From NCBI GenBank assembly GCA_003990765.1, contig RBNJ01000297.1:1-33827 (forward strand): a stretch of 33,827 nucleotides of DNA, given 5' to 3'. The translations under genes were made by a program, and so were the position numbers. The DNA is from Jimgerdemannia flammicorona. Taxonomy: Eukaryota. The notes beneath the pieces are model-generated. The model was given only the letters and a program-made list of their open reading frames with translations, had not been told where the DNA came from and made no database searches. This document shows, piece by piece, positions 16-33,826 of this stretch. How positions within the stretch are numbered: the first letter of the stretch is position 1; each line of letters begins with the position of its first letter.

Positions 16-840
16 ATCGATGATGTAATCATCTATAGCAAGACATCTAAGGAACACCTGCAGTACATATAGCAGATAATGGAAAGACTGAGAAAGCATG
101 GCCTGTATATCAAGTCTAAGAAATGCAAATTTGCAGAAATCAAGATCTCCTACCTTGGCCATGTTATCAATCAAGATGGAATGCACATGGACCCCCTCAA
201 GATACAAGTAGTAGCAGCATACCCAAGACCCACTACTATTATGGAAGCCCAAGCCTTTATGGGACTCACCTCCTACTATTACAGATTTATCAGAGGATTT
301 TCCAATATTGTAGGTCCAATCTATGAACTCAACAAAAAGAATACTAAGTTCCAGTGGACTGGCAGACAACAAAAAGCATTTGATGAACTCAAGATCAGAC
401 TGATCCAGGCACCCATCCTCAGACAACCCAATTGGACTCAAGAGTTTATCCTTCAGACAGATGCAAGTATACAAGGACTAGGAGTAGTTCTAGCTCAAAA
501 GGAAGACAAAAAAGAGTATATCATTGCATATCTTAGCCATGGAACCCAAGGAGCTGAAAAAGAATATGAATCCTACAAGTTGGAATACCTCACAGTTATC
601 AGGGCTGTGGAAAAGTTCTATTACTATCTGGCTGGAAAACACTTCACCATTCAGATAGACCACTCAGCTCTCACCTGGCTACTGACAACTGGACAACCCA
701 AAAGAATCTATACCAGATGGATAATGAAGTTATAAGCCTATGATGTAACCATTGTATATCACCCTGGAAGAATAAATTCCAATACAGATGCTCTCTTACG
801 GACACCTCAAAATACCTCTAACCAACAAAATCAATTATGA
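16..840 (+). pseudogene. Reverse transcriptase C-terminal part plus RNase H of gypsy copy 1
   Basis: One frame from IDDVIIYS through ORF 79..735 to NTDALLRTP (NADALSR motif), ending TGA 838-840; internal TAG/TAA stops explainable as CAG/CAA to TAG/TAA. Confidence 0.92.
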
Positions 841-2021
841 ATAAGGAGCTCTATTACAGAATCATCACATATCTGGGACAGCAAAAGATGCCCCAACATC
901 TGAAAGAATAGACATAAATGATTATCAACAGAACATGGAAACAATTCAAAACTGATAGACAAACACTGAAGAAAGAAAAACTACTAGTTATACTAGAGCA
1001 TAAGAAGGAGTAAACAATGAAATCAGTACATAAACTTGACTATCTAAGAGAAATAAATATATATAACAAAACAAGAAGAATGATATAGTGACCAGGAATA
1101 GAGAAAGATATCAGACAATTTGTCAAAAACTGTGACAAATACCAGAAACAGAAACAAGACCAACAAAACCAAGCCCCAGGATCAGCATATATAGAACTAG
1201 TACTATTTGCCCACATAGCAATGGATGTAATCAGCCCTCTACCCTTGACCCTGACTGGCAACTGATATATCATTATCATTATAGACCTTTTTATGAAGTG
1301 GATAGAAGCAGGACCCCTCAAGGAAGCCAATGCATAGTCAATTGCCAATTTCTTCCACAAAGAAATCATCTGCTGGTTCAAGACCCCAATGCAAGTAAAT
1401 ACAGATAGAGGAACAGAATTTGTGAACCAGTTCTTTGAGGTTCTTTACAAGAAGTACAAGATCCAGCACATTCAGACTACAGCCTATCACTCTCAAGGAA
1501 ATAGACAAGCAGAAAGGACCAACAAGACCCTCCTCAAGCCAAGATCTATGATAACTATGAAAACTGGGATCACTATCTGCTAATAGCATTATCTGCTCTC
1601 CGAGATATCAGATCACAAAGTACCCACTTTACCCCTCGAGAAATGCTATTTGGAAAAGAAAGTTCTCAAAACACCCTATCATCCAATAGAGATACTATAT
1701 GGAAACATATGGATGGAGAAATATAGAGACTATACCAAATCAGAAAGAAGGCTGAGGATTACATAATGAAGGCACAGGCACTACAATGAAAGAATATGGA
1801 AAAACCTGGAGATTATCAAGATAGGAGACAAGGTTTTGGTATATCAGAATATGGTAGAAGTCTCATGATCATGAAAACTAGAGCCCAAGTGGGAAGGACC
1901 TTACCTTGTGCAAGATATAAAAGGAACCACCTTTTGGCTACAAAAACTCTCAGGCACAATCATCTCCACTACTATTTACTGAAACTGACTCAAGAAGTAT
2001 CATGACCAGTCAACAAAGTAA
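837..2021 (+). pseudogene. Integrase of gypsy copy 1 (HHCC relic, DDE core, GPY/F motif, no chromodomain seen)
   Basis: ATG 837 MNKELYY; FVKNCDKYQ, IAMDVI, TDRGTEFVN, NRQAERTNKTL, LEPKWEGPYLV; several stops and a frameshift near 1530; exact 3' end uncertain (2021 or 2098). Confidence 0.9.
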
Positions 2022-2972: not shown

Positions 2973-3350
2973 ATATCTATATAGAGATACATATTAGAGA
3001 TAAAAGACAAAAATTCTCATTAATATAAGAGCAGCTATCTGTATTATTACTAAATAATTTCTAGATACTCTCCAGTAGCCCATTGATAGACCATCTAACC
3101 TCAGTATTATAATAGTAGATAGAGTCCAAACTCAAACTCTTAGAGAAGTACAAAACATCACTATCTCTTTAGAATATATTCAGTTTTCTATTCTAAAAGC
3201 TATTATTACTAAAGCTGTTATCTATGATATAATCCTTGGTACTAACTAGATAAAGGAAATAAATACAGTTATTAATATTAGTCAATAGATGCTCAAATTC
3301 AACTATAGAGAAAAGAAGTATAGAATTAAAATAATTAGCTATAAGTAACT
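2973..3350 (+). pseudogene. Heavily mutated retroviral-type aspartic protease of an older LTR element
   Basis: Frame from 3013 reads ILINIRAAICIIT...TLREV...YDIILGTN*I; reverting transitions gives ILIDTGAA...LGEV...DIILGTNW, the retropepsin DTGA and ILGxDW motifs; followed by a GAA-rich acidic linker. Confidence 0.7.
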
Positions 3351-5909
3351 AAAGAAGAAGAAGAGAAGAGTATATATATCAGTAGTAAAGAATCTACTAT
3401 AGAAGAAGAAGAAGAAGATAGAAATAATTCCAGACTCAACTCACAAATCAATCTAGTAGATAATAAATCAGAAGACAATATAAGTATAGAGTAAGAAGTA
3501 GAAGAGAAAAATATTATTTATTATTTCAGATAGTATATATTTATGTATTGAGTAATATAACTTAAAGATAATATAGTTTATATAAACTATATTATCAAGA
3601 TATCAAAATAATAGAAATTTTAACAAAATTTACTATTAAAAGTTATATAATATGATTTATAAATTAGTTATACTAATATTAAGTCAAGAGTAATTATAAA
3701 ATAGCTATATCTATAAATTATAAAGTCTATATAATATAATATTAAATAGCTTCAAAATATATAAATACTTATATTCTAGAACTATAAAACTATATTTCTT
3801 TTACTAAGATCAAATTTTATAATAAAGTTAATCTTTAAATTTCTTAATCTATTTTAAAAAGTTCTATTAAGTTAATAAAGAGCTCAATCTCTGAATATAA
3901 ATATAAATTTAAAAAAGTAATAATAATTATTATATATATAAGTAATAGTATATAAGAATATTCTTTTTAAATTTCTTCAAATAAAGATAGAGTAGACTAA
4001 GTAATTTATAAATAGTACTCTGATCAATTATTTTCTATAATATATTTCAAACTAAGAGAGATCTATAGATAAATAGATAACTGATAGATTCTGAGTCTTG
4101 GATTAAAACCTTCTTCTAGCTTAAATTAGTAATTATTTTAGATATTTTAGAATATCTTCTTTTAGAAAATAATTCTCTTTTTCTAATATAGAGAATTTAA
4201 GTATATACTTACTAGTTGAATTTTTATATAATATAATAGCTAAAGTAGTTGATAGAGTAGTAGATTGCTCAGCAACTTCTTATAGTATTTCTATAGTATA
4301 TAGCAGTCTTTTAAAGATATTTATAATATATACTTATAAGATAGTCTTGTTAATTATCTTAAAAGAGAGAAGAATAATATTTAGATAAGATGAGTTCAGT
4401 ATTTTTGGCTTCTATAATGATATAGTTACTTTTAATATAATTAGCTACTAAAATATTAAGCTAATTATAGTCTTTCTTAGAGAGATAGATAATATCTCAA
4501 AAGATTACTCCTTTAAGATAAGTAATAATCCAGAGTATATAGTAAAATATCTAATAGATATAAAGAGTAATTTAATTTTCTAATATCTAAAGTTTCTTAA
4601 TAAGATCTTTTTAATTATTATTATTAATTTCATTATAGAGATAGTAACTAGTTTTATAATTATACTAAAGAATAAAATAGATCTTAATTACTTTAAGCTA
4701 GTACATATAGTATAGTATTACAGTAATTGATAAAGTGATCCAGATCTTCTATATAGAAGTTAAAGTACTTAATAGTATTTAAATATTAGCAGACTATCTT
4801 AATAGTTTTGAAGATATATACTTTAAGACTAAAAATAAAGATAAAATAGTAAACTATTTAACAAATAGAGACTATTATAATTAATACTAGTTTGAATGAT
4901 TTTTATAGAAATCCTAAATAATAGAAATAAAGTTTCTAATAGTTTAGTTTATAAATACTAAGATTTGTAATTTAGTTTAACAATTTAGATAAGATCTTCA
5001 GATAATATTATTTGATAGTTATATTATCTTATTACTGATAAGAGCTAAATTTAATATTCTAAAACTTAGTATCTTTTATTTTAGTTTTAAATTATACTAT
5101 ATTAATATAGTATAGTATATTAAACTAAAAACCAAACTAAAATAAATTAAATCAAAATAGTAATTAGCTATTTATTAAATTAAGTTAAAATAAGTAAATT
5201 AACTATAATTATTAATAATAAAGTAGATATACAGTTATAACTTTAAAGGTCAAATAGCTTAATTTTTACAAAAAGATCAAATTTACTAATCTGATAATTA
5301 TATAACTTAATAGTTTAAGATTAAATTAAAAGAGCTAAGAAAAATTAAATTAAATTAAATTAAATAAATTAAAAGATATAGTTAATTTAAAAAATATATA
5401 TATAATCTAGTTTAAGATTAATTTAAAAGAGAAAGATTAAAATCAAATTAGAAGATATAGTTTAAAAATTATAATTTTAATCTTTTTTAAAATTTATAGA
5501 TTTTTTATTTTATTTTATTAATAATATATTATTTAAATTTTTAAATTTGTAATATATTTAAATACTAAAATTTAATTATATAATTCTAGCTCAAGATTAT
5601 CAAATTTGAATAATAATATACTGAGATATAAAATAAAAAAGCTTATAGTTAAAGATAATTATAAAAAGTAGCCAAATTGTATAAAACTTAGTACTTTAAA
5701 AGAATATTAAATTATAACTAAAATATCTATATATTAGTTATCTAGTAGAGAATTTTCATTCTTATTTCATTTTGCTAAAAGACTTAGAAAAATATTTATT
5801 TTCATACTAAACATAAAAGATATTCTAAAAATTTATTACTATTCAATTAAGACTACTTATCAGAATAGCAAGTAATTTTCAGGAGAAATTATCGCGGAAC
5901 CTTTCCCTG
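3350..5909. repeat. Extremely AT-rich decayed repeat, possibly a DNA-transposon (hAT-like) relic
   Basis: Essentially no CpG until ~5893, TpA-rich, no ORFs; (AAATT)n arrays near 5120-5370; ends in CCCTG at 5905-5909. Family assignment is speculative. Confidence 0.45.
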
Positions 5910-6067
5910 CATCCTTAAAGCAGTGGTGGCTAGTAATGGTCAATTATGTCTATCTGAGCCCATCAATATATCACATTCGAGATCTTTTGTTTTATTCTCA
6001 TGCCCCGAAAATGAATTAGAGCGACATGGATGAACGCCTCTCCTATTTCATCCTTTTTGTTCTTGAT

Positions 6068-9431: not shown

Positions 9432-10524
9432 TCAGGGCAAAGAATATTCAACCATCTGGAATGGCAACGATTTTTTGTAAGTCAATGGTCAGCCGAGCAT
9501 ATCTGAAGTAAATGTGTCCACACATTTGACCGAGATACAATAAAACTCGTAGCCACCACTTCTACCGACGTAACAAATAATATCAACTCCCAACACTTAC
9601 ATTCTTGGGACCCATGAACGCTAACCAATCGGACGCTGTCGTAGGTAATAAGCCCATGGCCGAGCACTTGTATACCCCCATAGCGATGAGCCCCAACTGG
9701 AAGCCCACGAAAGCTAGCTTGGGCATCAACAGGTTCGTGTCTCGTGATTTGGACGGGGTGGTGCTCTCGAACTTTGCGAAAACTGAGGTTTACAATATGA
9801 AGGCGGGATTGTGAGACAAGAGACCAAAAAAAAAAAAAATTGAACAAATCCCCGAGAATCTGGCATGGTGTATCCATGAATGTAGACATTTAGCAAATAC
9901 CTTGGCTGATATTGGCGATCGCCTTAAAGGGCTGCCAGAACAACATGACGGTGAACATGACGGAGAAAATCTGAACGCCATTGCCGGTCATCCACATCAT
10001 GAAGGCTTGCATCGGGATCGCCTTGCCGGCGGCCATAGCGGCATCCCATGCTTTCTGAAGTTGTGTGACATGGAAAGACCGTTAGACAAATGGCTTGCGA
10101 GTCCGTCATTGTGTACCAAAAATGGGGTTGAATGCAGTAAAATTGACCAAAGTGCCTGTATACCTTGACCTTGAGGTCGGCAAAGTCGTCCTGGTTGGCG
10201 CCAGCTTTCACGGATTTCTGGTGTGTGGTATGTGGTCATGGGTATGTGGTTTCCGAAAAAATGGGACGGTGCAAAGGACAACAAATTCCGGCAGTATACC
10301 TGTTGAGTCTTCGACAAAGACCCAGGCGCCGCGTGCGCGAAACCTGGGGGATCCATGATGGTCTGGCTGCCACGCTGCCTAGGGATGTGAGGACATCGAA
10401 TGGCTTAAATTCAGGCCTCTTTTGCTCCCAAAAGTGGCATGCGTACATAAAGAACATACCTCACTGGCTCGAGGGTAGCGAAATCGACGGTCCACTTATT
10501 CTGCGCTTCGTACCGTTTCGACAT
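9432..10524 (-). CDS. EMC4: ER membrane protein complex subunit 4 (TMEM85 family), 6 exons, 185 aa
   Basis: Exons 10524-10460, 10378-10300, 10217-10164, 10054-9901, 9782-9601, 9455-9432; protein [15 protein letters not shown]...DPPGF...[39 protein letters not shown]...[19 protein letters not shown]...VEYSLP. Confidence 0.93.
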
Positions 10525-10653
10525 GTGTCAAGGTCTTCCTCTGAACATTGGATTTCTGTTGACGTGTTGCGTCACCGCCTGAATAGAGTCTACGTCATCG
10601 ATTCGACAGGCTTTTGTGACCGACAACTCTACTGCATCCATCTGGCTCAAAGG
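10525..10653. promoter_or_regulatory. 129-bp divergent interval between EMC4 and UBA2 start codons
   Basis: ATG on minus at 10524 and ATG on plus at 10654. Confidence 0.7.
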
Positions 10654-13600
10654 ATGTCGACACGCGATTCTCACTCGAACGCCATCCTCGGTAAACCTCT
10701 ATTCGAGCGCGTCGCATCCTGTCGGGTGCTCATGGTTGGCGCCGGCGGTATAGGTTGCGAGCTTCTGAAAAATCTGGTCCTTTCAGGCTTCAAAAACGTT
10801 GAAGTTGTGAGTACATTTATCGGTTGAGGTTACTGAGGAGAGATTGCGAACTTTTTAATTTTCCGTTTTATAGAGTTTGGAAAATAGAAAACTATTTTAA
10901 TGGGTTTTATGAATAAAGTGTTCTCATTCTCATTCTGGCCTTTACTTTTCTATCATAACTTTTGCGAGCTAGGTCGACCTCGATACCATCGACCTCTCAA
11001 ATTTGAACAGGCAATTTCTTTTCCAAAAACAACATATTAAAAAGTCCAAAGCCCACGTATGTCTGACTGATTCGTTGTTCTTAATCTATGATTTGAGAGC
11101 CATACCTAAACAATTCGCAATATGCTTTGATGTTGATCATCTGTATTCGTAGGTTGCCAAAGAATCCGCCCTCAAATTCAATCCCTCTGTCAACATCACC
11201 TCCCACCATTCTAACATTAAAGACCCTCATTTCAATGTCGAGTGGTTCAAATCATTCGATATCGTCATGAATGCGTTGGATAACCTCGGTAATTTTCCGC
11301 GCGATCATGACCACGCTTATACTTGTGAGCACACCATTGAATTTACCTTCCGTTTCAATGCCGTAACATCCCCACAGATGCACGAAGGCACGTGAACATG
11401 ATGTGCCTGGCCGCGGATGTCCCACTCATCGAATCAGGCACCACAGGGTATCTGGGGCAGGCATACGTGATCAAAAAGGTTGAACTCTTGATTCCATAGT
11501 CAAGCTTGCTTATGGCGTCTCATTGACTTCGAGGTTGAATTTACCATTTTCCCTGGTAGCCCTTTTTTCACAAAAGTCAATTGTAAATTCCGATTTCAGG
11601 GCCAGACGGAGTGCTTCGATTGCAGTCCTAAGCCTACACCCACGACCTACCCGGTCTGTACGATTCGTAGCACGCCCAGCGCTCCCATTCATTGCATCGT
11701 TTGGGCCAAGAGCTATCTGTTCAGGTGAGTCACGTTAATCGCAGGCCAGGTTCGCGTGTGCTGAGTGCAAGGAGTGCATATTGGAAGACCTTTCTGATAT
11801 TATTTATACCTTTTGCGCCGATTGTATCAAGTCAATTGTTTGGTAAATCAGAGGACGAAGACGAAGAGATATTAGACAAGGAGCTTACGGAAGAAAATGG
11901 TGAGTGCATTGCGGAAGAGCGATCTCCCTATGCGTTGGTATCGGATACCTATGGCAATAATGCAGGTTCTACGTTGCCAATATCGCCGAACTTGGTTGGC
12001 ATGCTATTATAGCCAAAGAAATTGAAGCACTGAAACAGGAGACAGAGGAATTGAAGGCTATTAAAGCGGCAGCAGGAACGGACGAGTACGCAAGGAAGGT
12101 GTTTGACAAGGTGATCTTCGAGACATATTGATTCGGTACATGCGATTCGATACGTATCGCCGACCTACTGTCCATCTTCACTGTCTCACTTCGAACATGC
12201 GGGTGATTCGTCAAAATACCGATCTGAATTCTCCCATTACCACTTTTTCACTAAACCCTTCACAGGTCTTCACCACCGACATCACTCGGCTTCTCTCAAT
12301 GGAGGACATGTGGAAGACACGCAAACCGCCCACACCGCTGCATTTCGACGAGCTGCGCGATATGATGGACACGCGTGTCGTTGATGGGCCTTCGCAGGGT
12401 GTCGGGTTGAAGGATCAGCAGGTGTGGACGATCAAGGAGGATTTCGACGTGTTTCTAGACAGGTATGTGTTCTTATGCCCCACGCACATGCCATGCTACC
12501 ATCACCACCAGCCTTCTCGTGTATGGCATGAAGTTTTTTTCTTTTCTTTTCCGCAGCCTCCAGCGCCTCTCCACACGCCTTGCGAACGACAAGGGTGCTG
12601 ATCCCGAAGCCGTACTTTCTTTCGATAAAGACGACGACGATGCGCTCGATTTTGTAACGGCGACGTCGAATCTGCGCGCCCGAGTGTTTGGTATTCAGGA
12701 GAAGAGTCGGTTCATGATTAAGTGTAAGTTTACTTTGCTCATTAGCCTTTGAAGTAAACATAATGCATGATGCTTTCGATTAGCTTTAATTGTTCGGACA
12801 ACACAGCCATGGCAGGTAACATCATTCCGGCTATCGCCACGACCAACGCCATCGTCGCCGGTGTGGTGGTGATGCAAGCTTTCAAGGTGTTAAATGGACG
12901 ATTGGAGGATGCGAAGAGGGTATCTGTTTCATTTTATTTAGTGTAATTTATTCATGGGTTGCATACTCAACTAGGCAATCCTTTCCGAGAGGCTTTTTCA
13001 ATGTGTATTTACTTTAGGCTTAAACAACCATCGGCTAACACATTTTCTGTCCACCTCCTTGCGCAACAGACGTACCTTCGACCCGGTACACGCGCCCCGC
13101 AGCTTTTGTACCTTGAAGCAAACTCAGCGCCCAACCCTAAATGTCCGGTCTGTCAAAACACGAACGTCGGCCTCAAGATCGACGTGCATAAGGCGACGCT
13201 GGGGGACCTGGTGACGAAAGTGGTGTGCGCTTCGGAAGAGGAGGGTGGGATCGAGCTTGGGGAAGAGGTCGCGATCACTGAGGGCGGGAGGTATGTTTCT
13301 TTGTTCATTTGTCGGTTGCTTCGTGGCGGTTTGCTGGGGATTTTGGATTTATGCGTGATGGAATCGTCATTTCCTTGTTATTAAAACAAATGTTCAACTT
13401 CGCTCCTCTATAGGATGCTATATGATGTTGAATTTGAAGATAATCTTACCAAGACACTAGCAGATCTTGGTGTGGTAGACGGCAAGATGGTGAGCGTCAC
13501 GGCGGAGGACGATGAGGGCAAAGAGCCAGTGGTGTTGCTAATCCAGCATTGGTGAGTTTTTTGTAATTCATTTATCGATTGGCAGAGATACAAACCATTT

Positions 13601-14502: not shown

Positions 14503-15982
14503 TTAATGAGCGCTCATCCTCCCCTTCTCACTCTCGAGCCTTGAGTACAGTAGGTATAGCGCCATCTGGTTGCTCTCTGGGGTACCGGTAATGGTGACGA
14601 GTCGCTCGTTTGTGTTGCCGTGCGGCTCGGCGATCTTGATGTGTGAGCCGGATAGGTGCCGGATTTCGTTGATTTTGGCCCCACCCTTACCGATTATACA
14701 GCCCACCATGTCGTTCGGGATGAAAATCTGCTGCGCCTGCGAACCTGGTGGGGGAGGGTTGCCGCCGCCAGGACCGCCGGGCCCGCCACCGACACCAGGA
14801 CCAAAATCGCCAGCACCTCGGCCACCGGGGGGACCACCATACGTTGGTGGAGGCGGGTTGTAGAAGAACGGGGGAGCGTTGCCACCGGGACCAGGGCCCG
14901 CACCGGGAACGCCACCGGGACCGCCGGGAGGGCTGCCGGCGTTGGGAGGATAAGCGAACCTGGCCTGAGGTTTGTAGGGTATAGTGCCAGAGGCGCGCTC
15001 CATGTGCTCCTGCAGGATCTCGCCGACCTTGTAGCACGCAATGTGGATCGAATCCGGCACACCTGTGATGGAAATAGAGCGCTCCGTTGACATAGGCAGG
15101 CGGTCCTCTGAGGCATTGAGGCGCGCCCCAGAGGCTTCCTGAATCTCCTTGATCTTGACACCGCCCTTGCCAATCACGGAACCCATACGGGCGTCTGGTA
15201 CCAGCAGACGGATCGAGAGGATACGAGTGCCATTGGTGGGGTCTTCATTCTCCAAGTTTTCGTCGAGGATCTTGCGAGCAACGAGGGCGTATGCCTGATG
15301 CAGACAGTATTATAAGAGCCAAAATAATAATGGGAAACGAACGTTATTCTCAGATTTCGAACGGCCAAAGGCCAAATAGAGTCATGTACAACCAAGACTC
15401 CCACAAGTCAATGGGACACAATATATTCACGCACAGCGATCACAAAAATATAAGCCCTACCTTGGCAACAGCATCCAACGGCCCAGTAACGGTGAGGATG
15501 CGCTCGTAGGCCCCTTGCACCATCTCCGAGATCGTGACGCGAGCGCCGGACTTGTCGCGGATATCACTCACGTTCTTCCCGCCCTTTCCGATGATAACGC
15601 CAGCCTCCTTAGTGGTGACGAGAGAACGGATGGAGATGGAGGGGGCCGTGCTGGACTTGACAGACCCACCCGTAACGCTCCCGTCACCGCCGGCGCCGTC
15701 GCCGCCCTCGACGGTTCCCTGCGCGTCGTCGGTGCCGTCGCGCTCCATGGGAAGGACGGAGGAAGAGACACCGTCGCCGACGTTCAGGGTGCTCGCGCCG
15801 CCGCCGTTGGAGCTTTCGACACCGCTGGGGCCGTTGTCGTTGGGACCGTTGCCACCAGTGGCCTGGCGTTTGAAACGGGCGTGGCGGTCGTCGGAGTCGG
15901 AGTCGGAATGACCGTCGTCGTCTTCGGGGAGGGAACGCTTGAGGCGTTCGGAAGGTGAGTCAGTCTCCTCGTTATCAGACAT
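14503..15982 (-). CDS. Three-KH-domain RNA-binding protein (Rnc1/Pbp2/hnRNP K-PCBP family), 2 exons, ~437 aa
   Basis: Exons 15982-15461 and 15294-14503; three GxxG loops (IIGKGG, VIGKGG, IIGKGG), Gly/Pro linker before KH3, C-terminal ALYLLYSRLESEK. Confidence 0.93.
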
Positions 15983-16887: not shown

Positions 16888-19800
16888 TCAAGTTAGTGAT
16901 CCCCATCGCTCCAGATCAATGGGCGCCTTCCGTTGCATTTGCCCCAATATTGTCTACATGATACAAAGAGCTTTGCATTAGAAATGGCGCGAGTAATACT
17001 ATAAATCTCCAAGAAAAAAAAAATTCAACACATACTTTGGCAACCCTTTCCACTTCCGCACCACTCATCCTCCTCGCCTCCACTTCATTCTGTCTCCGCC
17101 GCTCACCATAAGCCAGCACCTGCCTCACAATCTCCTCCATCACCGGTAACGACGGCACCACGCCCTCATTCACCTCCCTCCGCGGCGCGGTTCCCGGTTT
17201 CAAGAACGGATCCTCCAACAGCTCTGGTATCGTCAACCTCAGCTTGCTATCACGCTGCAGGCATGTTTTCATGACTCTCAGCAAGTCCGGCTCAACGAGG
17301 ACGCCGGGCTGTGGGACGGCATTGTTCGCGTCCGCAGAGGGGATGGGGACGGCGATGGCAGGAAAGTCGATCAGGTATTGTGGGTTGGGGATGCATTGGA
17401 TTTTTTGGTACATGGTCAGATGGGAAAAGGGAGTGCGACCGTAGACCATCTGATAAAGGATGCAGCCGAGGGACCAGATGTCGCTGGGGCGGCCGAGCTA
17501 TTTGTTTGGAAGCCGGAGATAGGTTGAGGTAAACGTGGCCAAACAGATATGACAAAACGCATTCACCAAAAGATGAATCCTCACCTTCATACACCGTCTT
17601 CCACCAGGCTGGTTTCCATTCGTGTCCAGGATTGCTTCAGGGGACATGTAATTCACTGTACCGATCTGCTCAACAGGGGTAAGTGAGAATTCAACCAAGC
17701 GCACAATATATGCCAGCCTTGGCGTCTATTGCTATCACAACACGTACCTGCTGATCCCTGTGAATATTGGTGGTATCGTTCGAGATAGCTTTGGCGATGC
17801 CAAAATCGATCAACTTTAGTGACCCCTCGACAAACAAGAAGTTGGCGGGTTTCAGGTCGGAATGTACAATCTTCTCCTGGTGGATCGCGTCAACCGCTTG
17901 GAGCATCTACAGGGATGGCTCACCGTAATGGTGAGGCGGGATCAACAACTGGATGTACCGAAAAAAAAAAAAAAAAAACGGTTGTACGTACTTGCTCCCA
18001 ATACAACCGAATAAAATTTAAATTGATCGGCTTGCCCTGCTGCTTCGTTAATACGTGCGCAAGATCGATCTCACCACACTCCATCAACTGGTTTTTTTTT
18101 TTTTTTTCAAAAAAAAAAAAAAAAATTACGTCAAATCGCATATCACGCCAGTCCCGCCAACACCAGAGCATGGACCACGCACCACCAATACCCAATTCGG
18201 TACCAAACTCACCATCATCAGATAACTCTTTTCATAATTCACCTCCGAGTCGTACATCTTTATGATGCGCTCGTGTCCGGCCATCCGTTTGAGCAGGTTG
18301 ATCTCGTTAATATAGCCTGAGATGGCGCTCTGGTCAGCCTTGTCGAACATCACTTTCTTGAGTGCGTAGATGTGGTGGTTTGTGGTCATGACCTTGTAGA
18401 CCTTGCTCGAGCCACCTCGACCGATGGTGTCCAAGCGGGTGAACTGCCGGTTGTTGACCTGGGATTGAAAGGATGTTAGGTGAAAAGAATTTCATTCAGG
18501 CGGCTATTAAGCAAACCGTGGTCGACGATTCAAAAATATGCTTACCACCATGATCCCTTTGCCAACCTTTACGGGAGGAGTTTCCGATGCCTCTCCCTCT
18601 GCCACTTCCAATGCCGTTACCGATGGAGCCACGGCGGGCTGCGGTGGTGGCATGCTCACAGGTTGCGGCGGCGGCTTGACCACGCGCTCTGGTGGTGGCG
18701 GCATGCTGTTGACAGATTCTAGTATCGGCCTCAACGAGTTCTGCCCGAGTGGCATTGATGCCGACAACACCTGCCTCCACGGCTCCAGAGGAGCGACCTA
18801 TAAAAAGTATGAATGACCGGGGTACATCAACATCCTTATTCACACTGCAGAACCTTTGTTTGGTGATAAGCTCACCTTTTTGGTTTCGACATGGCGATTC
18901 CCGCCCTGTGAGCTCCCCGACGACGATCGGTATGAGGATGCTGGCTAGCGTGGATAAAAAGAATGGTGTCAGTGAGGAGTGACATGATATAGCGGCTGTA
19001 GACCTTGACTATAAACAATCCGCGCAACGTACCGCGTTCTCTTTCCTGTCGCTGGCTGGTTGTTGGATACTTGGTGGTGGACTTGACCTTTCTACCTTCT
19101 ATCGATTTCGTTTATATTAGAACAGCTTTTATACTACGTTATTATCGACAAACCCTCCATAAACTCGGAAACCAGCTTACCGTCGCCGCTGCAGATTCTT
19201 GTTTCGGCTCTTGGAACCGATTCAGCAGGCTCAACGAACTCTGCTGACCGCCGAAATCGATTCTGGACACACGCGGCTGCGATGGCGGCTCCTCCTGTAC
19301 CTGCTGTACGGGGAGCTTAGCCGTCGAAGAGTTCTCTGGACTAGTGCCGGGCGACTCGATGGGGCTCGAGCTCGCGGAAGAGGAGGAGGAAGAGGCAGAC
19401 GAGACAATCGCGTCACGGGACGCGAGTCGGTCCACGTCTCGGTCTTTACGAGGACCTTGAGGGAGTGGGGTTACCGTGGGGCCGGCGGGGTCGGCGAAAG
19501 CGACGGCGACTCTGGACGGCGCGGTGGTGTAGGTGGTTTTTTTTGTTACTTGAAGAGATTGAAAGGGTTAGAGTTGCATTAATACCTTCTATTAATTGAC
19601 CGGACATAATACTGAGCAGCCGTCACCTACCATTATCGATCCCCCAATCTGGCGCATCCTTCTTTACCACATCATCCTCGGTCAACATCGACCGGCCATC
19701 AGAATCTATGAGAAAAGGCAACACATGAAATCGGTCAATGCAAAAAGTTACCAATGGTTTAGGCTTCTACTGCACGGAGAAACCCTTAGCGTAGTAGGGG

Positions 19801-21389: not shown

Positions 21390-23065
21390 ATGCCCGTGAC
21401 AAGAAGCACAGCGAAGAATAATTCCCCAAGGAAATCCTTGTCCCCCAAAACCCCCACCCCCGCCAGCCGACCCACCCAAGCAACTCAACAAACCCCTTCC
21501 AGACCCAAACCCGTCGCAAGAGCATCCGTCAACTCCGAGCCCAAGGCCGTCCCCGAGTCGTCGCCCAAACCTGCCGTAGCTCCTTCGCCCAAGGTCGTCA
21601 CCACCCCCGTCACAGCGACAGCTGCCCCTGCTACCCCCAGGACTAACAAGCGGAAAGCCGCCGCGACCCCGAAACAATCGGTAAAGAAGGTCAAGGAGGC
21701 CGAGGAGGCGAAGAAAGAGGAAGCAGAACCTGTGTCTTTATTCGCCAAGGAGTTTAAGGCGCTCGAAATTAGCGATGATGAAAAGGAAACGTTGACGGCG
21801 AAGAAGTCCACGCCCAAAAAGGAGTCACCAGTCAAGAAAACAACGCCGGCAAAGGAGGCACCGGCAAAGAAGGAGACGCCAGCAAAAAAGGAGACGCCCG
21901 CAAATATAGTTACGCCAACGAAGAAAGTTACGCCAGCAAGGAAGGTCACGCCGATGAAGATGGAAGCCGAGCAGGCCGAGCAGGCCGAGGAGGAGGAGAT
22001 CAGCGACGAAGAGGCAGCGCAGGCCGCGCTAGACGAGGCGATATTGCAAGGCATTGATAGCAGCGAGGGTGAGGACAGCTCAGACGACGAGGATATGGCC
22101 GGCAAGGAGGACGTGTTCAGGTCGATGAAGAACCAGATCGCGCTCAATCCCAAGGACGAGGTCGCGCTGAGGAAGAAGACGGCCGCCGCCTCCAAGGTAC
22201 GTATTCTGTCTGCATTTCGCCTGATCCGCGCATATCCGCCGTGCTGTCAGCTTACCTCACTTCCTCTTCCGCCAAAATTTACAGGCCCCAAAAGTCAAGC
22301 CTGGTGTAATCTACCTTGGCCGCATTCCGCACGGTTTCTACGAGGAGGAGATGAAGGCTTACTTTGAACAATTTGGCACCGTCTCACGCCTACGCCTGTC
22401 ACGGAACAAGAAGACAGGTCGCCCGAAGCACTACGCTTTTATCGAGTTCGAGTCGGAGGAGGTAGCCAAGATTGTGGCGGAGACCATGGATAATTACTTG
22501 CTGTACGGGCACATCATGAAGTGTAGGTATATCCTTTTTTGCTTTATCGTTTGGTATCTTGTCTTTGTTCCAGTTATATTTCTTTGTATTATTATTGGAG
22601 ATTATGTTATTCCTTTGCAATGCATTTTATAACCTTCATCCCCCACACCGTCTTTTCCTCGCCCTCCCCCCCCCCCCCCCCCCCAGGCCAGGTGCTGCCT
22701 GAAGATAGGGTCCACGCGACCATGTTCATCAACGCCAACCGCAAGTTCAAAGTTATCCCGTGGACCAAGATCGCGCGCAAGCAGCACAACAAACCCAGGA
22801 CGGCAGAGAACCGCGAGCAGCTCGTCGAAAAGCTGCTTCTTAAGGAGGGGAAGAAGCGGAAACAGTTGGAGGAGTTGGGGATCGAGTACGAATTTACCGG
22901 TTACGTGAGTGATCCATCTGGGAGTTCTCGAAAGGGGGTTGTGCTTTTTATTTTGGTGGACAAATTACGCACTTGGTCAATGATCTGACAGTTTCTTTCT
23001 CTGTGATCTACGAATCTTTGCAGCTCGGCGACGTCAAACAGAAGCCGACACACATCAAGTTCTAA
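21390..23065 (+). CDS. NOP15: Nop15/NIFK (MKI67IP)-like nucleolar RRM protein, 4 exons, ~434 aa
   Basis: Exons 21390-22196, 22285-22522, 22687-22904, 23024-23065; [65 protein letters not shown]. Confidence 0.92.
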
Positions 23066-25534: not shown

Positions 25535-25598
<64 letters not shown>

Positions 25599-26306
25599 GT
25601 TACTTGGACTTCTTTATTACTATCTATCTATAATAATTACAGTATCTCTATCCCACTACCCAATCTCCTTAGGACTCCTTCCCTCCTCTACTCTATTATA
25701 CTTAAATATTATCTTACCATCTACTACTATAACTCTCTCTTCACTCTACCCATAGATTTTCTCCATCAAGTACCAATGACCTCTCTGCAGACCCCATTCC
25801 ATCTACCATTCTGCCAAGACATTCATCATCAATTCATTCTATTTTGTCAGCTATATTTCTAATCCCAAATACCTCTCTTCTTTAAAAACAAATAGCCAGT
25901 ATCCAGCCCATTCTACCCATATAGCTACAATCTACCCCAAAGTAAGCCACTAATTTCCAACCCCCCCAACCAATCTATCTCTCAGGTCCTCTCATTGACT
26001 CCTCTCTCTATTCCTTCTCTTCATAATACTCAATCTATTATTAATCACTAGTCAAAAATCTCCAAGTATTTCATACTCTCCCAGCCAATATTTTGGCATC
26101 TATATATATCCCCCATTCTGTCCTATATTATAACACTCCTTACAATTAAAGCTTCTCCTCTTTACAAGATAGCCTATATAAAAGTTAAGTATGATATTTC
26201 TCTTCAACATATACCACTAGATCATCTAGAATTTAGAGAGTAGCTATCTTCAGATCTCTTCACTCTAGGCCCAGACCCCATTCCAGTCCCACCTCTCTCT
26301 AATACT
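25535..26306 (-). mobile_element. 5'-truncated L1/Tx1-like LINE, 3' end with poly(A) tail (copy A)
   Basis: T61 at 25535-25595 (A tail on minus) with minus-strand AATAAA at ~25612-25617; 25640-26306 aligns by eye with 29865-30528 (shared ACCTCTCTGCAGACCCCATTCCA, ACCAATCTATCTCTCAG, TAGGCCCAGACCCCATT). Confidence 0.88.
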
Positions 26307-26331
26307 ATAAGAGGGTTGCTTTTAGGGTAAC

Positions 26332-26976
26332 TGTTACATAGTTCTGGAAGAGTTTTCTGGAAGTTCTGGATATTCTGGAAGACTGTTTTCTTATGGTCAA
26401 GATCAATTTCATATGGAGTATATCCTCTATGCTTATTGATTTCAAGATCAGGTTAATGTCTCAACCAAAGTCCTTTTTTGGACTAGTTCTGAATATTCAG
26501 AATTTTCTGTATTTTAGGAAGTTTAGGAAACTAAGGCCAGCTTAGTTGAATTGGCATATCACTGTAGACAATACCCAATTAGGAAATTTCATGATGGGGT
26601 TAGGAGTGGGACCTAACAGGGAGTAGATTTACTTAAGAGTGGTTTGTGGGTTATTAAATAGGTTTATTCACTATTCATAATATTGCTATACTAGGAGTAG
26701 TTATGTGAAGGAATATTGTGGAGAAGTGTTCAGGAATGTTCTTGTGTATTCGAGTCTGTTCAAGTCTGTTCAAGTCTGTTCAAGTCTGAGATTCTGAGGT
26801 CTGGGGAAAAGGGTATTTATACTAGTGAGGGGCTATCTAGACTATACTAGATATGGATGTAGCACTTAGTGCCTTGCTGAGTCAGAATGCAGTCATGTAG
26901 TATAAGTGTGATCTGACATATGTATCAAGAGATTGTCTGACTGCTGAGTTAGTTCATAGTTATATTGTACATATCA
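26332..26976 (-). repeat. LTR (~645 bp) in minus orientation
   Basis: Minus strand starts TGATATGTA and ends TATGTAACA; TATAAATA at ~26814-26821; shares AGTGAATAAACCT with the LTR at 2505-2972; internal 10-bp repeat GTCTGTTCAA x3 at ~26754-26783; no matching TSD. Confidence 0.7.
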
Positions 26977-29855
26977 CCCTCAAAGTCATGAAGTTTCACC
27001 CTAAAGTCAAGATTCCAGAATATAAGACTGAAGGAGCTATAGGAATAGACTTTGCCAGTATTCGAGATGCTACTCTCAAACCACAGACCACTACCCTACT
27101 TGACACTGGAATTGGAGTCAAGCTGCCAGAGAACTATGCCAGAATTATCAAGACCAGGAGCAGTCTGGCCAAAAGTGAAATCTCAGTTAAAGGAGGAGTA
27201 ATTGACCCTGATTACACTAGTGAGATCTTCCTCATAGTCAGGAATTACAACCCCACCACCCCATTTGAAGTCAAGAAGCATGACAGGATTGGCCAGATGC
27301 TGATCCATGAAATCAAGAAACCCAAGATCATTGAAGCCATCAAACTCATCAAGACCAAGAGAGGAGAACAAGGCTTTAGATCTACTGGAAGAGGAGTCTA
27401 TGCTACCACCAAGATTACTGAACTTAAGCACAAGAAAGACAAGAACCAGAGCAAGCACACATATACCATTGAAGAAAACTTTCCACTGGAGGAACAACTT
27501 CTCAAGATCCTGCATCAGAATGAAGGAATACTTGCTACAGACTTTAGGGATATCTACAATCAAGAACCCAAGTACTACCATGAAGTTGATACTGGTAATA
27601 CCAAGCCCATCTACCAGAAAGCCAGACCCATACCACCTGCCTATAGAGAATGGCTGTGAACAGAACTCAAGGAAATGGAAGAAGCTAGAATCATCAAGCA
27701 AGCTATCAGCCCCTGGGCCTCACTCATTATTCTTGCTCTAAAGAAAGGAAGCAAGCCTGGAGAGTTTGTACTAAGACTCTGCATTAACTATAGGAAGCTC
27801 AATGCCATCACCAAGAAGGATAGGCAGCCCTTGCCAAATATTCAAGAGATCCTTACCACTCTTGAAAGCAAAGCCAAATACTACACCACCTTGAATCTGT
27901 TCTCAGGCTTCTATCAGATTGATCTCACTCAAGATGCTAGTGAGAAATCAGCCTTCATCATATCTGATGCCACCTATATCTATCTGCAAATGCCATTTGG
28001 AATGTATAATGCCCCAGCAAGTTTTCAGTGAATGATGAACAGAGTTTTCAGCAACAAAATTGGAAAATGGCTCTTTGTCTATATTGATGATGTGATCATC
28101 TTCAGCAACACTATAGAGAAACATGTCAATCATATACAGCTAGCCCTCAAGAAGCTCAAGGAGTATAGCCTTTACATCAAGCCCAAGAAATATAAGTTTG
28201 CAGCTCAAGAAATCGCCTATCTAGGACACCTCATCAACCAGACTAGAATCCACACAGACCCTATAAAGATTGAGGCTGTTGCAGCCTACCCAAGACCCAG
28301 AACAACCACAAAAGTCCATGCCTTTCTTGGACTGGCCAGCTACTACAGAAGGTTCATCAAAGGATACTCCAATATTGCAGCATCTATCTATGAGCTACTG
28401 AAGAAAGAAACCAAATTCAAATGGACTAAGGAGCACCAAGAAACCTTCAATAAACTCAAGACCAGGTTGACCCAAGCACCTATCCTCAGAAGACCAGATT
28501 GGAACCTAGAATTCATCCTGTAGACAGATACAAGTACTATAGGACTTAGAGCAGTCCTAGCTTAGAAGAAAGATGGACATGAATATGTCATCTCCTATAT
28601 AAGCTGAGGTACCTGTGAAGCAGAACAGAACTATGAGTTATATAAGCTCAAATGCTTAGCAGTAGTTTAGGCAGTAGACAAGTTCCACTACTACCTAGCT
28701 GAGAAACACTTTACCATTCAAACAGACCATTCCACTCTTGCCTGGCTATTCTATACTCTAAACTCCAAAGGAATATATACCAGATGGATCTACAGGCTGT
28801 AAAAGTATGACTGTACTGTCAAGCACTACTCAGGAAAGACTAACATCAATCCAATGTACTCTCAAGGACACCCTGAAACACTCCCATTAAGACTATTTAA
28901 TATGAATAAGGAGCTATACTATGGATTAATCAGCTACCTTAAGCAGCAGAAGATGCCCAACCACCTTGAACCCTGGATAATCACTATCATCAACTGGACT
29001 TGGAAACAGTTTGAACTAGACAACACTACACTCAGAAAAGGAGGAAAGCTAGTAATATCTGAACACAAGAAGTATTAAGTAATAAAGAAAGTACATGAGC
29101 AAGGATACCTAGGAGGAACCAACACATATGATAAGGCAAGAAGAACTATATGGTGGCCCAAGATGGAAGAAGACCTGTACCAATTTGTCAAAGAGTGTGA
29201 CAAGTGCCAAAAACAGAAACAAGATCAGCAAGACCAGGCACCTGGGTCATCAAGAATTGAGCCTATCTCCTTCCACCACATTGCAATAGATATCATTGAG
29301 TCACTACCAGTAATACTATCAGGAAACTACTATATTATAGTTATTGTAGATCTCTTTACCAAATAGATAGAGGTAGGAGCATTACAAGAAGCCAATGTCC
29401 TCTCTATAGCTGACTTTCTGCACTGAGAAATCATCTGCTGCTACAAGATACTGAAGCAAATCACAACAGACTACAGTATAGAATTTGTTAATAGATTCTA
29501 TAAAATAATATATCAGAAATACAAGATCTAACACATCAAGACCACTGTGTACCACCCTCAAGGAAATGGACAGACAGAAAGAACCAACAAGACCCTCAAG
29601 AACATCCTAACAAAGATCTCAGAGATATATGAGAATTGGGATAACTATCTCCCAACTATTCTCTCTGTCCTATGAGATATATAGTCACAGAGCACACGCT
29701 TTACCACAAGAGAGCTGCTCTTTGGAGAAGAAGATTCTGATGGAACCTCAGCCACAAATCTAGACCTAACTTGGAGATGGGTTGATGCAGAAATCTGGAG
29801 ACTATACCAAATCAGGAAGAAGGCTGAAGATTACATCATCAAGTCACAAGTGCTG
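26977..29855 (+). mobile_element. Ty3/gypsy internal fragment dUTPase-RT-RNase H, integrase; decayed; copy 2, same family as copy 1
   Basis: SPWAS, RLCINYRKLN, MPFGMYNAPASF, YIDD at 28080, YLGH, MNKELYY at 28902, CDKCQ, GNGQTERTNKTLK; co-linear with copy 1; truncated both sides. Confidence 0.95.
26979..27389 (+). pseudogene. Trimeric dUTPase domain in frame with downstream RT
   Basis: All five motifs: AIGIDF, TRSSLA, GVIDPDYTSEI, DRIGQM, RGEQGFRSTG; frame continues to HEVDTG and RT. Confidence 0.92.
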
Positions 29856-32800
29856 ACAATAAAGTACTCTCTTCCACTACTTAATCTCCATAAGAGGACC
29901 CTCTCTCCATACCCTTATACTTAAATACTACCTTACTACCCATTACTCCAACTCTCTCCCCACTCTGCCCACAAATTTTCTCTACTAAATGATACTACCA
30001 ACCTCTCTGCAGACCCCATTCCAGCTACTAGCTCATTAAGATATCCTCTATCAACCCTTCCCACCTTAACAGCTACTCCTCCAAACCTAACTACCTCCCT
30101 TCATCAAAAATAAACAACCAGTATTCTGCTAGCCCCACCCATATAGCTAACACCTAACCCAGAGTGAGCCACTCCTTTCCAACTCCTCCCACCAATCTAT
30201 CTCTCAGATCTTTCTATTGACCCCTCTCACTATCTCCTCTTCTTACAACATCCAATTGATTCCTAACTACTAACTAGAAGTTGTCAAGTATCTTGCACTC
30301 ATTCAGCCAATGTTCTGGTATCTGTACAAATCTCTATTTCTATCCTACATTATAATACTCCTCACAGTCAAAGCTTCTCTCCTCTACAAGGTGGTTTATA
30401 TAAAAGTTGAGCATGGTATTCCTCTACAGTATATACCACCAGACTACTCAGTACTTAGGTGGCAGCCATCATCTTACCTCCACACTTTAGGCCCAGACCC
30501 CATTTTAGTTCTACTCCTCTCTAATACTCACTGTCTGCCAACTACCAGGCTATACATTCTGTCTCAACTCTCTCTGGCACTCAACCCCATTACTAATATT
30601 GAAGTTAATAAGGAAAGTACTCTCCAACAACACTCAATCTCATCTTCATATCACTGGACCCCAAGATATCTCTCCTTTATCCTTCTGTTAGTGAATTCTA
30701 ATAAGTGTGCCCTATCAACTACTTCTCACCAAAAGCTCTTATATTACATATACCCACTATTCAGAAACCCAATCAAAGACAGTAGATCTCCAGTAGAGTC
30801 TCTTAGTGAGAATCTCATCTCTCAAACTTTCTTCATCAGAGAAACCCAGTCACCACCCCTCAGTTCTACAGCTCTCTTCAGCTACCATGCTCTTAGATAA
30901 TATAGCCTCTTTGGGAAGTCAACTAGTCCAAGACCTCCTCTAGCCACTGGTAATGATAAGATCTCCTAGCTAATCTGACCCCTCCTCTCAGCCCAGATCC
31001 AATCTTTTGCCAGCTTTAATAGCCTCTTCACCTAGGCCAGAAAGTCCAGATGATATATTAAATACTACATCTTAGATAGCCAGTAGACATTCAAAATTGA
31101 AACATATTCTGTCAAAGACAAGTGATGGCCTTTCCAACTCTGTAAGACCTCTCTTCAAATAGCCACTCACTGCTCACTAAGGTCTCAGTAAGACTGACCC
31201 ATATACTGAAAAATAGTTGTCCAAGTATCTCACAGTCTCTCTAGTAGAGATAATTATTCCAATAATATCTCCTCCCACCAGACTATTGCTCAACACTATT
31301 GTCTCATACTTATACTAGTTGAGTTTAGCTCTAGAATATATCCCATACTACTTCACTATTTTCTATAGTTTCTTGATATCAGCAATCAATCTCAGGTCAA
31401 TCACCATATTATCTACAAAAGCTTCAACTTTCTATACAATTTCAAATACTGAGAGCTTTGCTACCTTCTGCTGAATCTTATTTATCAATGAAAGAGTATA
31501 CAAAATAGGAGATAGTGGGTCCCTCTGGGGAACACCCCTACCTAGAGAGAACACCACCTCTCAATATCTATTGTATATGAGTGTCACTTTACTTCCTTCT
31601 AGTAGACTGATCATTGCTACTTAGAACTATAGAGACACCAATCCTATTCAGTATTTTTGCCAATCAGACTCACCAAATATGATCATATTCTTTCTCCTGA
31701 TTAAAGAAGACCAATCATCCATTTAGTCCACAGACTCAAGTCTCTTCAATGATGCTATGCATCTAAGCCATACTATCCCTAATGAGCCAGTCCTCTACAA
31801 AATCTTACTACTCCTCACCCAAGACTTGCTGGGCCACCTTCTGTAGTCTTGCTACCACCACCTTAGTGACCAACTTTCTGTCTATATTCAGAAGCATAAT
31901 AGGCCATCAGTTCTTCCAGTTCTCTCTTCTGCCCTTGTTCTTATAAAGCAGTATTATCAGCCCCAGATTCTGCTCACCCACCCATCTCTCTGACTATAGT
32001 ATCAAGTTACAAAGTACCATCAACTCTCCCAGCACTCTGGAGACTCTCACTATCTTCTTCCAGAAGTCTCAGGGCAGACCATCCTCTCCTGGTACTGTGC
32101 CCAGTATAGTCATGGCAAGAATCTGACAAATCTCCTCCTCCTGTACTGGTATCACCAATCTGGCCAGTCTATCTACTTGTGGTGGGTGCCATTTCTCCAA
32201 AATATGTTCAATAGTAATAGTATCAGCCCCACCCTCCTTCTTACTCTACAAACCACTTCACCTCTCCTTTAATAAACCTAAAATATCTTATGAACTATAT
32301 ACTAGCAGACCATCAGAATCAAGAACTCCCTCTCATCTCTGTCTCACTCTCCTTACCTGTAGAGACCTTGAGAGATACTTAGAGGGCCTCTCTCCCTTCT
32401 TCAGCCCCTGCCAGTATAACTGTGCAGCCAAACTCTATGCCTGCACCTCCTCCTCCTCCCTCAATATCTGTTATAGCTCTACAATCTCCAGCCTTGCCCA
32501 CATCACCCTCCAGTCCTCCACTCTCTTCAGGGCCAAAAGATCTGCTCAATTTTCCAAAATCCAAACCAATCTAGCAAAAGCCTAGGTCACCCTCTTCTTT
32601 CTCTATCTTCTTGCTGCCTTGCCAGCCTCACTTCAGTAAATCCTAGCAGCCTTCTTCAATCTCACCCATCAGATATTAACTATGGCACTCTTCTGTATCC
32701 AACCTTCTACTCTCTACTAAATGTCCTCAGCCTACTTGTCCCACAACACCTTCTCAGTCAACAAAGAGGAATTGAGGCACTAATGTCCAGGCTCATCTCC

Positions 32801-32982: not shown

Positions 32983-33020
32983 CAGTAGTGCATCACAACC
33001 CGAGCCAACCCATGTACATA

Positions 33021-33295
33021 TTTAACCCGACTCGGAATTATACGTCACCCATCTTTAACCCGACCCGGAATTATATGTCACCCGCCTTTAACCTGACCCA
33101 GAATAATATGTCACCCATCTTTAACCCGACCCGGAATTATATGTCACCCATCTTTAACCCGACCTGGAAATGTACATACATCACCCATCTTTAACCTGAC
33201 CCAGAATTATACATAACCCATCTTTAACCCAACCCGAGAAATATACGTGACCTGACCCTGACCCGTATTTAACCCAACACAGACCCATCTTTAAT
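33021..33295. repeat. 33-bp tandem repeat, ~7 copies plus degenerate tail
   Basis: Unit TTTAACCCGACCCGGAATTATATGTCACCCATC starting at 33021, 33054, 33087, 33120, 33153, ~33190, ~33223. Confidence 0.93.
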
Positions 33296-33457: not shown

Positions 33458-33826
33458 TTACTCTTCATCACTATAAACCAACTGATCCTCCTCTTCATTG
33501 CTATAAACCAACTGATCCTCCTCCTTCTCATATTCCGAACCATCTTCCTCCATATATTCCGAACTGCTTTCCTCTATATCCTCCTCCTCCATATCCTCCT
33601 CTGGGCCGACCTCCTCCATGCCAACCTCCATTTCGTCCTCCACACCAACCTCCCCATGTTCCTCCGCGCTGACCTCCCCGTGTTCCTCCGCGCTGACCTC
33701 CCTGTGTTCCTCCGCGCCGACCTCCCTGTGTTCCTCCGTGTCAACCTCCCTGTATTCCTCCACGCCGACCTCCCCGTGTTCCTCCACGCCGACCTCCCCC
33801 ATGCCGACCTCCCCATGTTCCTCCAC
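33458..33826 (-). CDS. 3' part of an acidic low-complexity ORF with 24-bp (EEHGEVxx) repeats; runs off the window
   Basis: Open frame with 8-aa repeats and duplicated EEEDQLVYS; coding status unproven. Confidence 0.35.
   Translation of the reverse strand: MEEHGEVGMGEVGVEEHGEVGVEEYREVDTEEHREVGAEEHREVSAEEHGEVSAEEHGEVGVEDEMEVGMEEVGPEEDMEEEDIEESSSEYMEEDGSEYEKEEDQLVYSNEEEDQLVYSDEE

Follow-up and report, generated by a model that had tools for sequence, protein, structure and literature searches.

The 33,827-nucleotide window examined here (Jimgerdemannia flammicorona contig RBNJ01000297.1, forward strand) carries two decayed copies of a Ty3/gypsy long terminal repeat (LTR) retrotransposon, copy 1 at its left end and copy 2 between decayed LTRs at 25696-30337. 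In both, the integrase (IN) lies outside the open reading frame (ORF) for reverse transcriptase (RT) and RNase H (RH). The copies are probably two old, dead members of a deep Ty3/gypsy clade that lacks a chromodomain and has a split pol, with IN as a second ORF. The first ORF would encode protease, dUTPase, RT and RNase H and stop about 13 codons beyond the ADALSR motif, and IN would start at a conserved Met (MNKELYY...) replacing the R or Q of the 'Q.D' motif in fused elements. Sequence comparison establishes the split architecture, the conserved start Met and their inheritance, and points to translation of IN from its own AUG as a free protein. The most likely route to such a protein may be termination-coupled reinitiation by ribosomes finishing the RT-RH ORF, a proposal held with some reserve; part of what remains would fall to other routes such as an internal ribosome entry site or leaky scanning.

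In copy 1 the RT-RH frame (frame 1) closes with ...YHPGRINSNTDALLRTPQNTSNQQNQL followed by TGA at 838-840, and the ATG at 837-839, in frame 3 (-1 relative to RT-RH), opens MNKELYYRIITYLGQQKMPQHLKE. The initial annotation had read the end of RT-RH as NTDALLRTPQNTSNQQNQL-TGA (838-840) and the IN start as an ATG at 837 in the -1 frame, and translation confirms this exactly to the base. Its remark that changing TGA to CGA gives no fusion is also correct, since RT-RH and IN occupy different frames. An ATGA is trivial on its own and gains significance only by comparison with relatives.

Close relatives of IN are encoded by stand-alone ORFs. The copy 2 IN, read through with X at its stops, was used as the query and gave 18 IN-only matches, the best 14 of which were examined. 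All 14 have the Met homologous to the ATG at 837 (copy 1) and 28902 (copy 2), and the protein starts exactly there in ten of the 14. P0323 is an intact protein of 433 residues with H2C2 and rve domains only; it is 83% identical to the copy 2 IN and, over residues 19-414, 53% identical to 837-2006 of copy 1. P0324 is 70-73% identical to the copy 1 IN (residues 27-257 against 822-1514, 70%). A HMMER search with a more distant IN-only protein, P0003, recovered many further integrases of 394-450 residues, and the first residues of P0003-type integrases (M[DN]xxxY..L..YL) align with MNKELYY.

The Met is a mark of the split forms. When a hidden Markov model (HMM) of the IN N-terminus was applied to 340 proteins, 32 began exactly at the homologous Met and six more had a Met there with at most 60 residues upstream. 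Among fused Pol proteins with the N-terminal IN region aligned, Met occupied this position in only one of 47, the other residues including R (17), Q (6) and E (5). Split-type sequences were the source of the HMM, but even so the two groups clearly differ in this residue and in where the protein begins. An R or Q at this position in fused elements is the familiar 'Q.D' motif.

RT-RH proteins ending where the split requires are also common. Sorted by C-terminal architecture, the RT-RH relatives of copy 2 (the best 120) include 33 that end no more than 30 residues past an ADALSR-like motif without IN (25 of the 33 within six residues); the others are fused (46), lack a recognisable motif (26) or have a longer tail (15). 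P0203 is a complete protease-dUTPase-RT-RNase H ORF with the C-terminus ...DTLSRSLI, and P0315 (protease, dUTPase and RT) is 84-86% identical to copy 2 (residues 163-514 against 26973-28028, 86%). The initial annotation had named one finding that would speak against it, young intact elements whose RH and IN share a frame, and no such element appeared: none of 50 matches spans RH and IN at > 31% identity to copy 2. Scans of further collections yielded no member of the split clade. In metagenomes P0003 found eight loci at 24-34% identity, none of them from this clade, and in three (L001, L003 and L004) RT-RH and IN share one frame. Viral contigs gave no matches to P0203, P0059 or alignment A2, and the genome-contig scan returned one contaminant contig, L009, with a distant fused gag-pol element, and nothing from the split clade.

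Inheritance of the split is clearest in IN trees. In a FastTree analysis of 215 IN cores the distribution of split and fused states requires only five changes, and both window copies fall in a clade of 31 rows, none fused. A quick IQ-TREE run was made on 76 rows comprising all 37 split, the two window, five truncated and the 32 nearest fused sequences, with other fused rows omitted; it gave a 28-row clade (SH-aLRT 99) of 23 split, three truncated and the two window rows, again with no fused member. Copy 1 is the sister of P0324 and copy 2 the sister of P0323. IN-only ORFs at the homologous Met, RT-RH proteins ending after ADALSR and a clade free of fused members thus support the reading of the separate IN ORF as a heritable trait of the lineage and not a product of decay.

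A simpler account would be that the ancestor had a normal fused RT-RH-IN Pol and that the junction offsets are random indels of decay. Copy 1 IN has seven stops within its first 232 codons and a frame change near 1533, a single frame (frame 3) nominally covers both RH and IN in the present copy 2 sequence, and an indel in a run of A residues (below) shows that the junction collects indels. However, over 1782 aligned nucleotides the only internal indels between the copies are a 7-nt gap near 1532 and two 1-nt gaps, both located in the 70 nt that separate RNase H from the IN ATG. The nominal single frame of copy 2 arises because its ADALSR motif contains, at 28853/28854, a gap of 1 nt when aligned with copy 1; the gap breaks the motif in the RH frame and leaves it legible only in frame 2. 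Intact IN-only ORFs 83% and 70% identical to the two copies begin at or just upstream of the same Met, which is specific to split forms, and the clade has no fused member. Decay of a fused ancestor is largely refuted on these comparisons and is very improbable.

The geometry of the junction was then compared between copies and relatives. Copies 1 and 2 are only 66% identical over the aligned region (transitions, 342; transversions, 262) and so represent two diverged sublineages, not recent duplicates. IN does not share the frame of the conserved RNase H terminus in either copy: the offset is -1 for copy 1 and +1 for copy 2. Around the A-run at 827-830, the sequence of copy 2 has 1 nt less than that of copy 1. 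X1, a soil metagenome searched as Logan contigs, is the sole listed public run with the stretch (share 0.08), and no RNA run is listed. There, 559 contigs match copy 1 at at least 80% identity, and their differences from it are mostly A>G (68) and T>C (59) as against C>T (32) and G>A (39), so copy 1 is more decayed by C>T and G>A changes than the X1 contigs. These have G at 784 and C at 797, restoring NADALSR, and at 827 the high-depth junction contig (704-853, depth 35 of 37.2) lacks one base.

When copy 1 is read with three A residues, IN lies at +1 in both copies and the RT-RH stop falls 5 nt after the A of the ATG (ATGAATAA); the TAA at 842-844 within ATGAATAA is the same codon as the TAA at 28907-28909 of copy 2. 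The N-terminal extensions of P0323 (MLTHSQGHPE...), P0324 and P0329 (MPMPSQED...) are ADALSR-coding DNA read one base later, so by back-translation IN would be at +1 relative to RT-RH in these as well. As the arrangement of the family, the AUGA overlap in the -1 frame that the initial annotation noted in copy 1 does not stand, since the X1 contig, copy 2, P0323, P0324 and P0329 are all at +1; judged from these sequences, the ATGA/-1 overlap is a homopolymer change specific to copy 1, one extra A in 827-830, which may alternatively be an assembly error. The native geometry of the subfamily would be IN at +1, its AUG preceding the RT-RH stop by 5 nt (AUGAAUAA), and the copy 1 AUGA would have come from a 1-nt expansion of the A-run.

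Around the junction, 57 nt are open in both frames. Within them the RT-RH tail is kept between the copies at seven of 13 residues, together with the same stop, whereas the IN-frame reading upstream of the Met keeps none of ten residues after GH; this argues for the Met as the start of IN. Initiation there is further favoured because split forms always have the Met and fused forms hardly ever do, and because both copies have an A at -3 of the ATG.

A +1 geometry also invites a programmed frameshift in the overlap, which would yield a protease-dUTPase-RT-RH-IN fusion, with IN packaged as part of Pol and the Met incidental. IN is indeed at +1 in copy 2, the X1 variant, P0323, P0324 and P0329, and in all five its frame has no stop over the 18-31 codons that precede the Met. 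By our own arithmetic, a run of 18 open codons would turn up by chance in about 40% of cases, and the IN-frame stretch upstream of the Met is unconserved between the copies while the RT-RH frame is conserved. Motifs used in the scan were the heptamers of Ty1, Ty3, antizyme and prfB; CTTAGGC, GCGAGTT, TCCTGAT and CTTTGAC, as well as the pattern X XXY YYZ, are all absent from 760-860 and 28826-28926. Invariance of the Met in 38 split proteins, against one of 47 fused, and the exact start there of ten of the 14 IN-only matches examined (the best 14 of 18) also speak against a frameshift. Precedents exist, as the fungal elements Ty1 and Ty3 use +1 frameshifting at gag-pol (PMC5911963); they share with the window element a fungal LTR setting and a downstream ORF at +1, whereas the site here is RH/IN and not gag/pol, CUU AGG C and GCG AGU U are lacking and the downstream ORF has a conserved AUG. 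In DIRS-1 of Dictyostelium the ORFs for RT/RNase H and recombinase overlap and use different reading frames; +1 frameshifting is a proposed, not a determined, way of joining them (PMC5006619). DIRS-1 has a tyrosine recombinase and inverted repeats, unlike the DDE integrase and LTRs found here. Frameshifting is quite unlikely to be how IN is made.

Alternatively, IN might have an mRNA of its own, subgenomic or spliced or made from an internal promoter, with the Met as the first AUG of that RNA, as foamy-virus Pol and retroviral env are translated from separate mRNAs. A conserved initiator Met with A at -3 in both copies would fit this, as would several IN-only ORFs on contigs that barely exceed them (1507 nt for the 447-residue P0334 and 1864-2540 nt for others). 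Short contigs are, however, the norm in these collections, and the tight apposition of stop and start (ATGAATAA) would serve no purpose if IN had its own RNA. A separate RNA is unlikely, and coupling to the end of RT-RH is favoured over it because that apposition is kept across lineages only 66% identical.

Three other readings were rejected. Reassigned stop codons (TAA and TAG as Q, several stops falling where Q is expected) are out, because the frames contain TGA stops too and TAG-TGA stands in place of W-W; the stop pattern of the copies is C>T and G>A decay. An intron between RH and IN is out, since the distance from ADALSR to the Met is only about 12 codons. Slippage during transcription of the A-run is out, as the run is only 4 nt long and is missing in copy 2.

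Several observations weigh against a split pol with IN read from a second AUG. Both window copies are decayed. Starts of database proteins are the choices of gene callers and come without genomic context. The three-A junction rests on a single 153-nt contig from a soil metagenome and from another copy, and a second, low-depth X1 contig has a gap of unlisted position. Minimum free energies of the 141-nt junction segments showed no excess structure in either copy (z -0.59 and +0.65), both copies being mutated. The RT-RH tree scatters the split label, which requires 18 changes over its 33 split and 92 fused rows, and the tree has no supported clade beyond the two window copies; the rows nearest to these, P0207 and P0203, are of the split type. 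Either the RH/IN split arose many times or some of the short RT-RH proteins are broken copies or products of gene callers. At least one IN-only protein, P0145, has the same conserved Met behind 22 extra residues and combines IN with what we take, by eye, to be a C-terminal Ulp1-like peptidase. It resembles Ginger1 DNA transposases and may belong with such elements instead of being part of a split retroelement, in which case DNA transposons may have recruited gypsy-type IN ORFs of the split clade.

Stand-alone gypsy-type IN ORFs are known from Ginger DNA transposons and from domesticated gypsy integrases, and P0145 resembles one. The window IN differs from these in lying directly after RT-RH within LTRs. 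The integrases of P0323, P0324 and P0329 are likewise regarded as parts of retroelements, because their extensions encode ADALSR in the other frame.

Stop/restart translation is found in victoriviruses (AUGA), hypovirus CHV1 and influenza B (UAAUG), caliciviruses (termination upstream ribosome-binding site, TURBS) and the non-LTR element SART1, some of them in fungal hosts. The window element shares with them an AUG within a few nucleotides of the upstream stop (ATGAATAA; ATGA in copy 1). It differs in that no pseudoknot or TURBS-like element was detected at its junctions, in copies that are decayed, and in that the upstream ORF exceeds 2.4 kb.

The Ty3/gypsy features present are RT of the RVT_1 type followed by RNase H, an H2C2 and DDE IN downstream, and LTRs (in copy 2). 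The order RT-RH-IN is seen in both copies, H2C2 and rve are clear in P0323, and protease occurs in the relatives P0315 and P0203. The textbook single Pol polyprotein that includes IN is not what was found, as IN is a separate ORF in the split clade; this is a variant architecture and no ground for exclusion from the Ty3/gypsy superfamily. There is no chromodomain: the copy 1 IN ends after GPY/F, P0323 has H2C2 and rve only, and PF00385 is absent from the Pfam lists of the IN-only matches. On this sequence evidence the window element is not a chromovirus. Fungal Ty3/gypsy elements with dUTPase are known from Phanerochaete, Postia (PosPlaTy3) and Tuber (Tmt1) (PMC2864245). With canonical fungal Ty3/gypsy elements those of the window share RT, RNase H, an H2C2 and DDE IN with GPY/F, the order RT-RH-IN, LTRs and a dUTPase between protease and RT. 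They differ in having IN outside the Pol ORF, with its own conserved Met and in another frame, an RT-RH stop about 13 codons past ADALSR, and no chromodomain. Full-text searches of the literature turned up no description of an RH/IN split in Ty3/gypsy; subscription papers and Repbase reports may hold one.

In textbook retroviruses and LTR retrotransposons IN enters the particle as the C-terminal part of Gag-Pol. The split clade, deep and perhaps widespread, may have freed IN from Gag-Pol, giving it its own AUG and coupled reinitiation after a protease-dUTPase-RT-RNase H ORF of > 2.4 kb, a tentative proposal that is somewhat less likely than not. If it is right, a lineage with separate IN needs other means both to set the ratio of RT to IN and to bring IN to the cDNA. 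Free IN would reach the cDNA by protein-protein recruitment into the particle or by joining it after uncoating, and packaging versus recruitment after uncoating becomes directly testable in a natural system. An LTR element would then join the eukaryotic examples of stop/restart translation, the first for the integrase of such an element. Annotation pipelines that expect one Pol ORF would label such elements as broken, or annotate the IN as a stand-alone transposase.

Stopping immediately after the RNase H motif may not be confined to this clade. Unrelated-looking RT-RH proteins (P0310, P0318, P0319, P0321, P0261, P0265, P0241 and P0248) end one residue past ...DALSR, which suggests that such a stop recurs in other gypsy lineages too.

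Copy 1 (Table 1) is a dead, 5'-truncated element, as seen from premature stops in both of its frames and the frame change near 1533. It runs past the window start at its 5' end, and an LTR pair was delimited for copy 2 only. A 16-nt poly(A) at 1-16 adjoins the truncated RT. The RT-RH frame has premature stops at 70-72 (TAG) and 733-735 (TAA) ahead of its terminal TGA; 16-783 is 57% identical to the copy 2 read-through (tblastn), and residues 553-816 of P0203 align with 16-804. The frame opened by the IN ATG meets TAG at 909-911 after only 24 codons, and the seven stops in the first 232 codons include TAG-TGA where relatives have W-W. IN changes frame at about 1533-1790, returns to frame 3 and closes with TAA at 2019-2021 after ...HDQSTK, about 30 residues beyond its GPY/F module (WEGPYLV).

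The LTRs of copy 2 are 68-81% identical direct repeats spaced by about 4220 nt, and a 61-nt poly(T) (25535-25595) lies just upstream of the 5' LTR. In the Pfam search of its read-through (P0001), dUTPase was matched at residues 7-134, RVT_1 at 263-414 (6.7e-29) and RT_RNaseH at 479-607 (1.3e-26; RT_RNaseH_2, 1.9e-28). The copy 2 IN gave Integrase_H2C2 at 1.7e-14 and rve at 5.4e-05 (23.8 bits, under the curated cut-off, in a decayed copy); it has six in-frame stops, is truncated C-terminally and ends before the 3' LTR. Stops in frame 2 of the junction are TGA 28874-28876, TAA 28898-28900 and TAA 28907-28909. Neither gag nor an aspartic protease was found in either copy, copy 1 being 5'-truncated and copy 2 having nothing upstream of dUTPase. 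The dUTPase of copy 2 (Pfam 1e-23, 26988-27389) is directly upstream of RT; among relatives, P0203 and P0315 have it between protease and RT and P0270 has it downstream of RNase H, so its position varies in the group. The in-frame TGA at 28029-28031 (after ...NAPASFQ) coincides exactly with the C-terminal residue of P0315; either both inherited one nonsense mutation or a CGA>TGA change has recurred.

Table 1. Features located in the window (asterisks in translations are stop codons)
Feature	Position	Strand	Basis
Copy 1 RT C-terminal part and RNase H, frame 1	17..840	+	Translation; tblastn; P0203 match
NTDALLR, decayed ADALSR-type motif closing the RNase H domain	781..801	+	Translation; X1 contigs
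A4 run; one A fewer in the X1 junction contig	827..830	+	X1 contig layout, depth 35 of 37.2
Copy 1 integrase coding region, begins at ATG 837-839 in frame 3	837..2021	+	Translation; relatives P0323, P0324
TAA closing the RT-RH frame in the three-A reading (...SNQQ/INYE*)	842..844	+	Frame 1 of 781-828 plus frame 2 of 830-844
ThiF ORF	10147-10824	+	Domain match
KH ORF	14506-15309	-	Domain match
Split protein kinase domain, Mps1-like by eye	16919-17497 and 18129-18491	-	Domain match
RRM ORF	22225-22629	+	Domain match
Copy 2 5' LTR, decayed	25696..26115	+	Direct-repeat families D3 and D4
Copy 2 dUTPase, RT and RNase H, frame 3, seven in-frame stops	26988..28901	+	Pfam on read-through P0001
Copy 2 junction, frame 2 (ALSR frame), SNVLSRTP*NTPIKTI*YE*	28850..28909	+	Translation
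Copy 2 integrase, ATG 28902-28904 (MNKELYYGLISYL...), frame 3	28902..29870	+	Pfam; 83% identical to P0323
Copy 2 3' LTR, decayed	29915..30337	+	Direct-repeat families D3 and D4

Between the two copies, at about 6-24 kb, lies a gene-dense core of cellular genes with a GC content of about 50%, and the flanks are AT-rich repeats riddled with transitions. Ascomycota make up most of the Atlas cluster nearest to the KH protein (score 0.91), which is no more than a lead. Taken together, the sequence likely comes from a fungal host with repeat decay driven by methylation or resembling repeat-induced point mutation (RIP). The block at 3000-6000 has a GC content of 17-20% and several AT-rich tandem repeats (5143-5581), and 3010-3321 shows a weak protease-like match to residues 10-112 of P0203. 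It is probably another, far more decayed retroelement in a RIP-like isochore, as judged from its sequence. At the right end of the window are tandem arrays (33017-33252 and 33588-33822) with periods of 33 nt and 24 nt and a C-rich strand.

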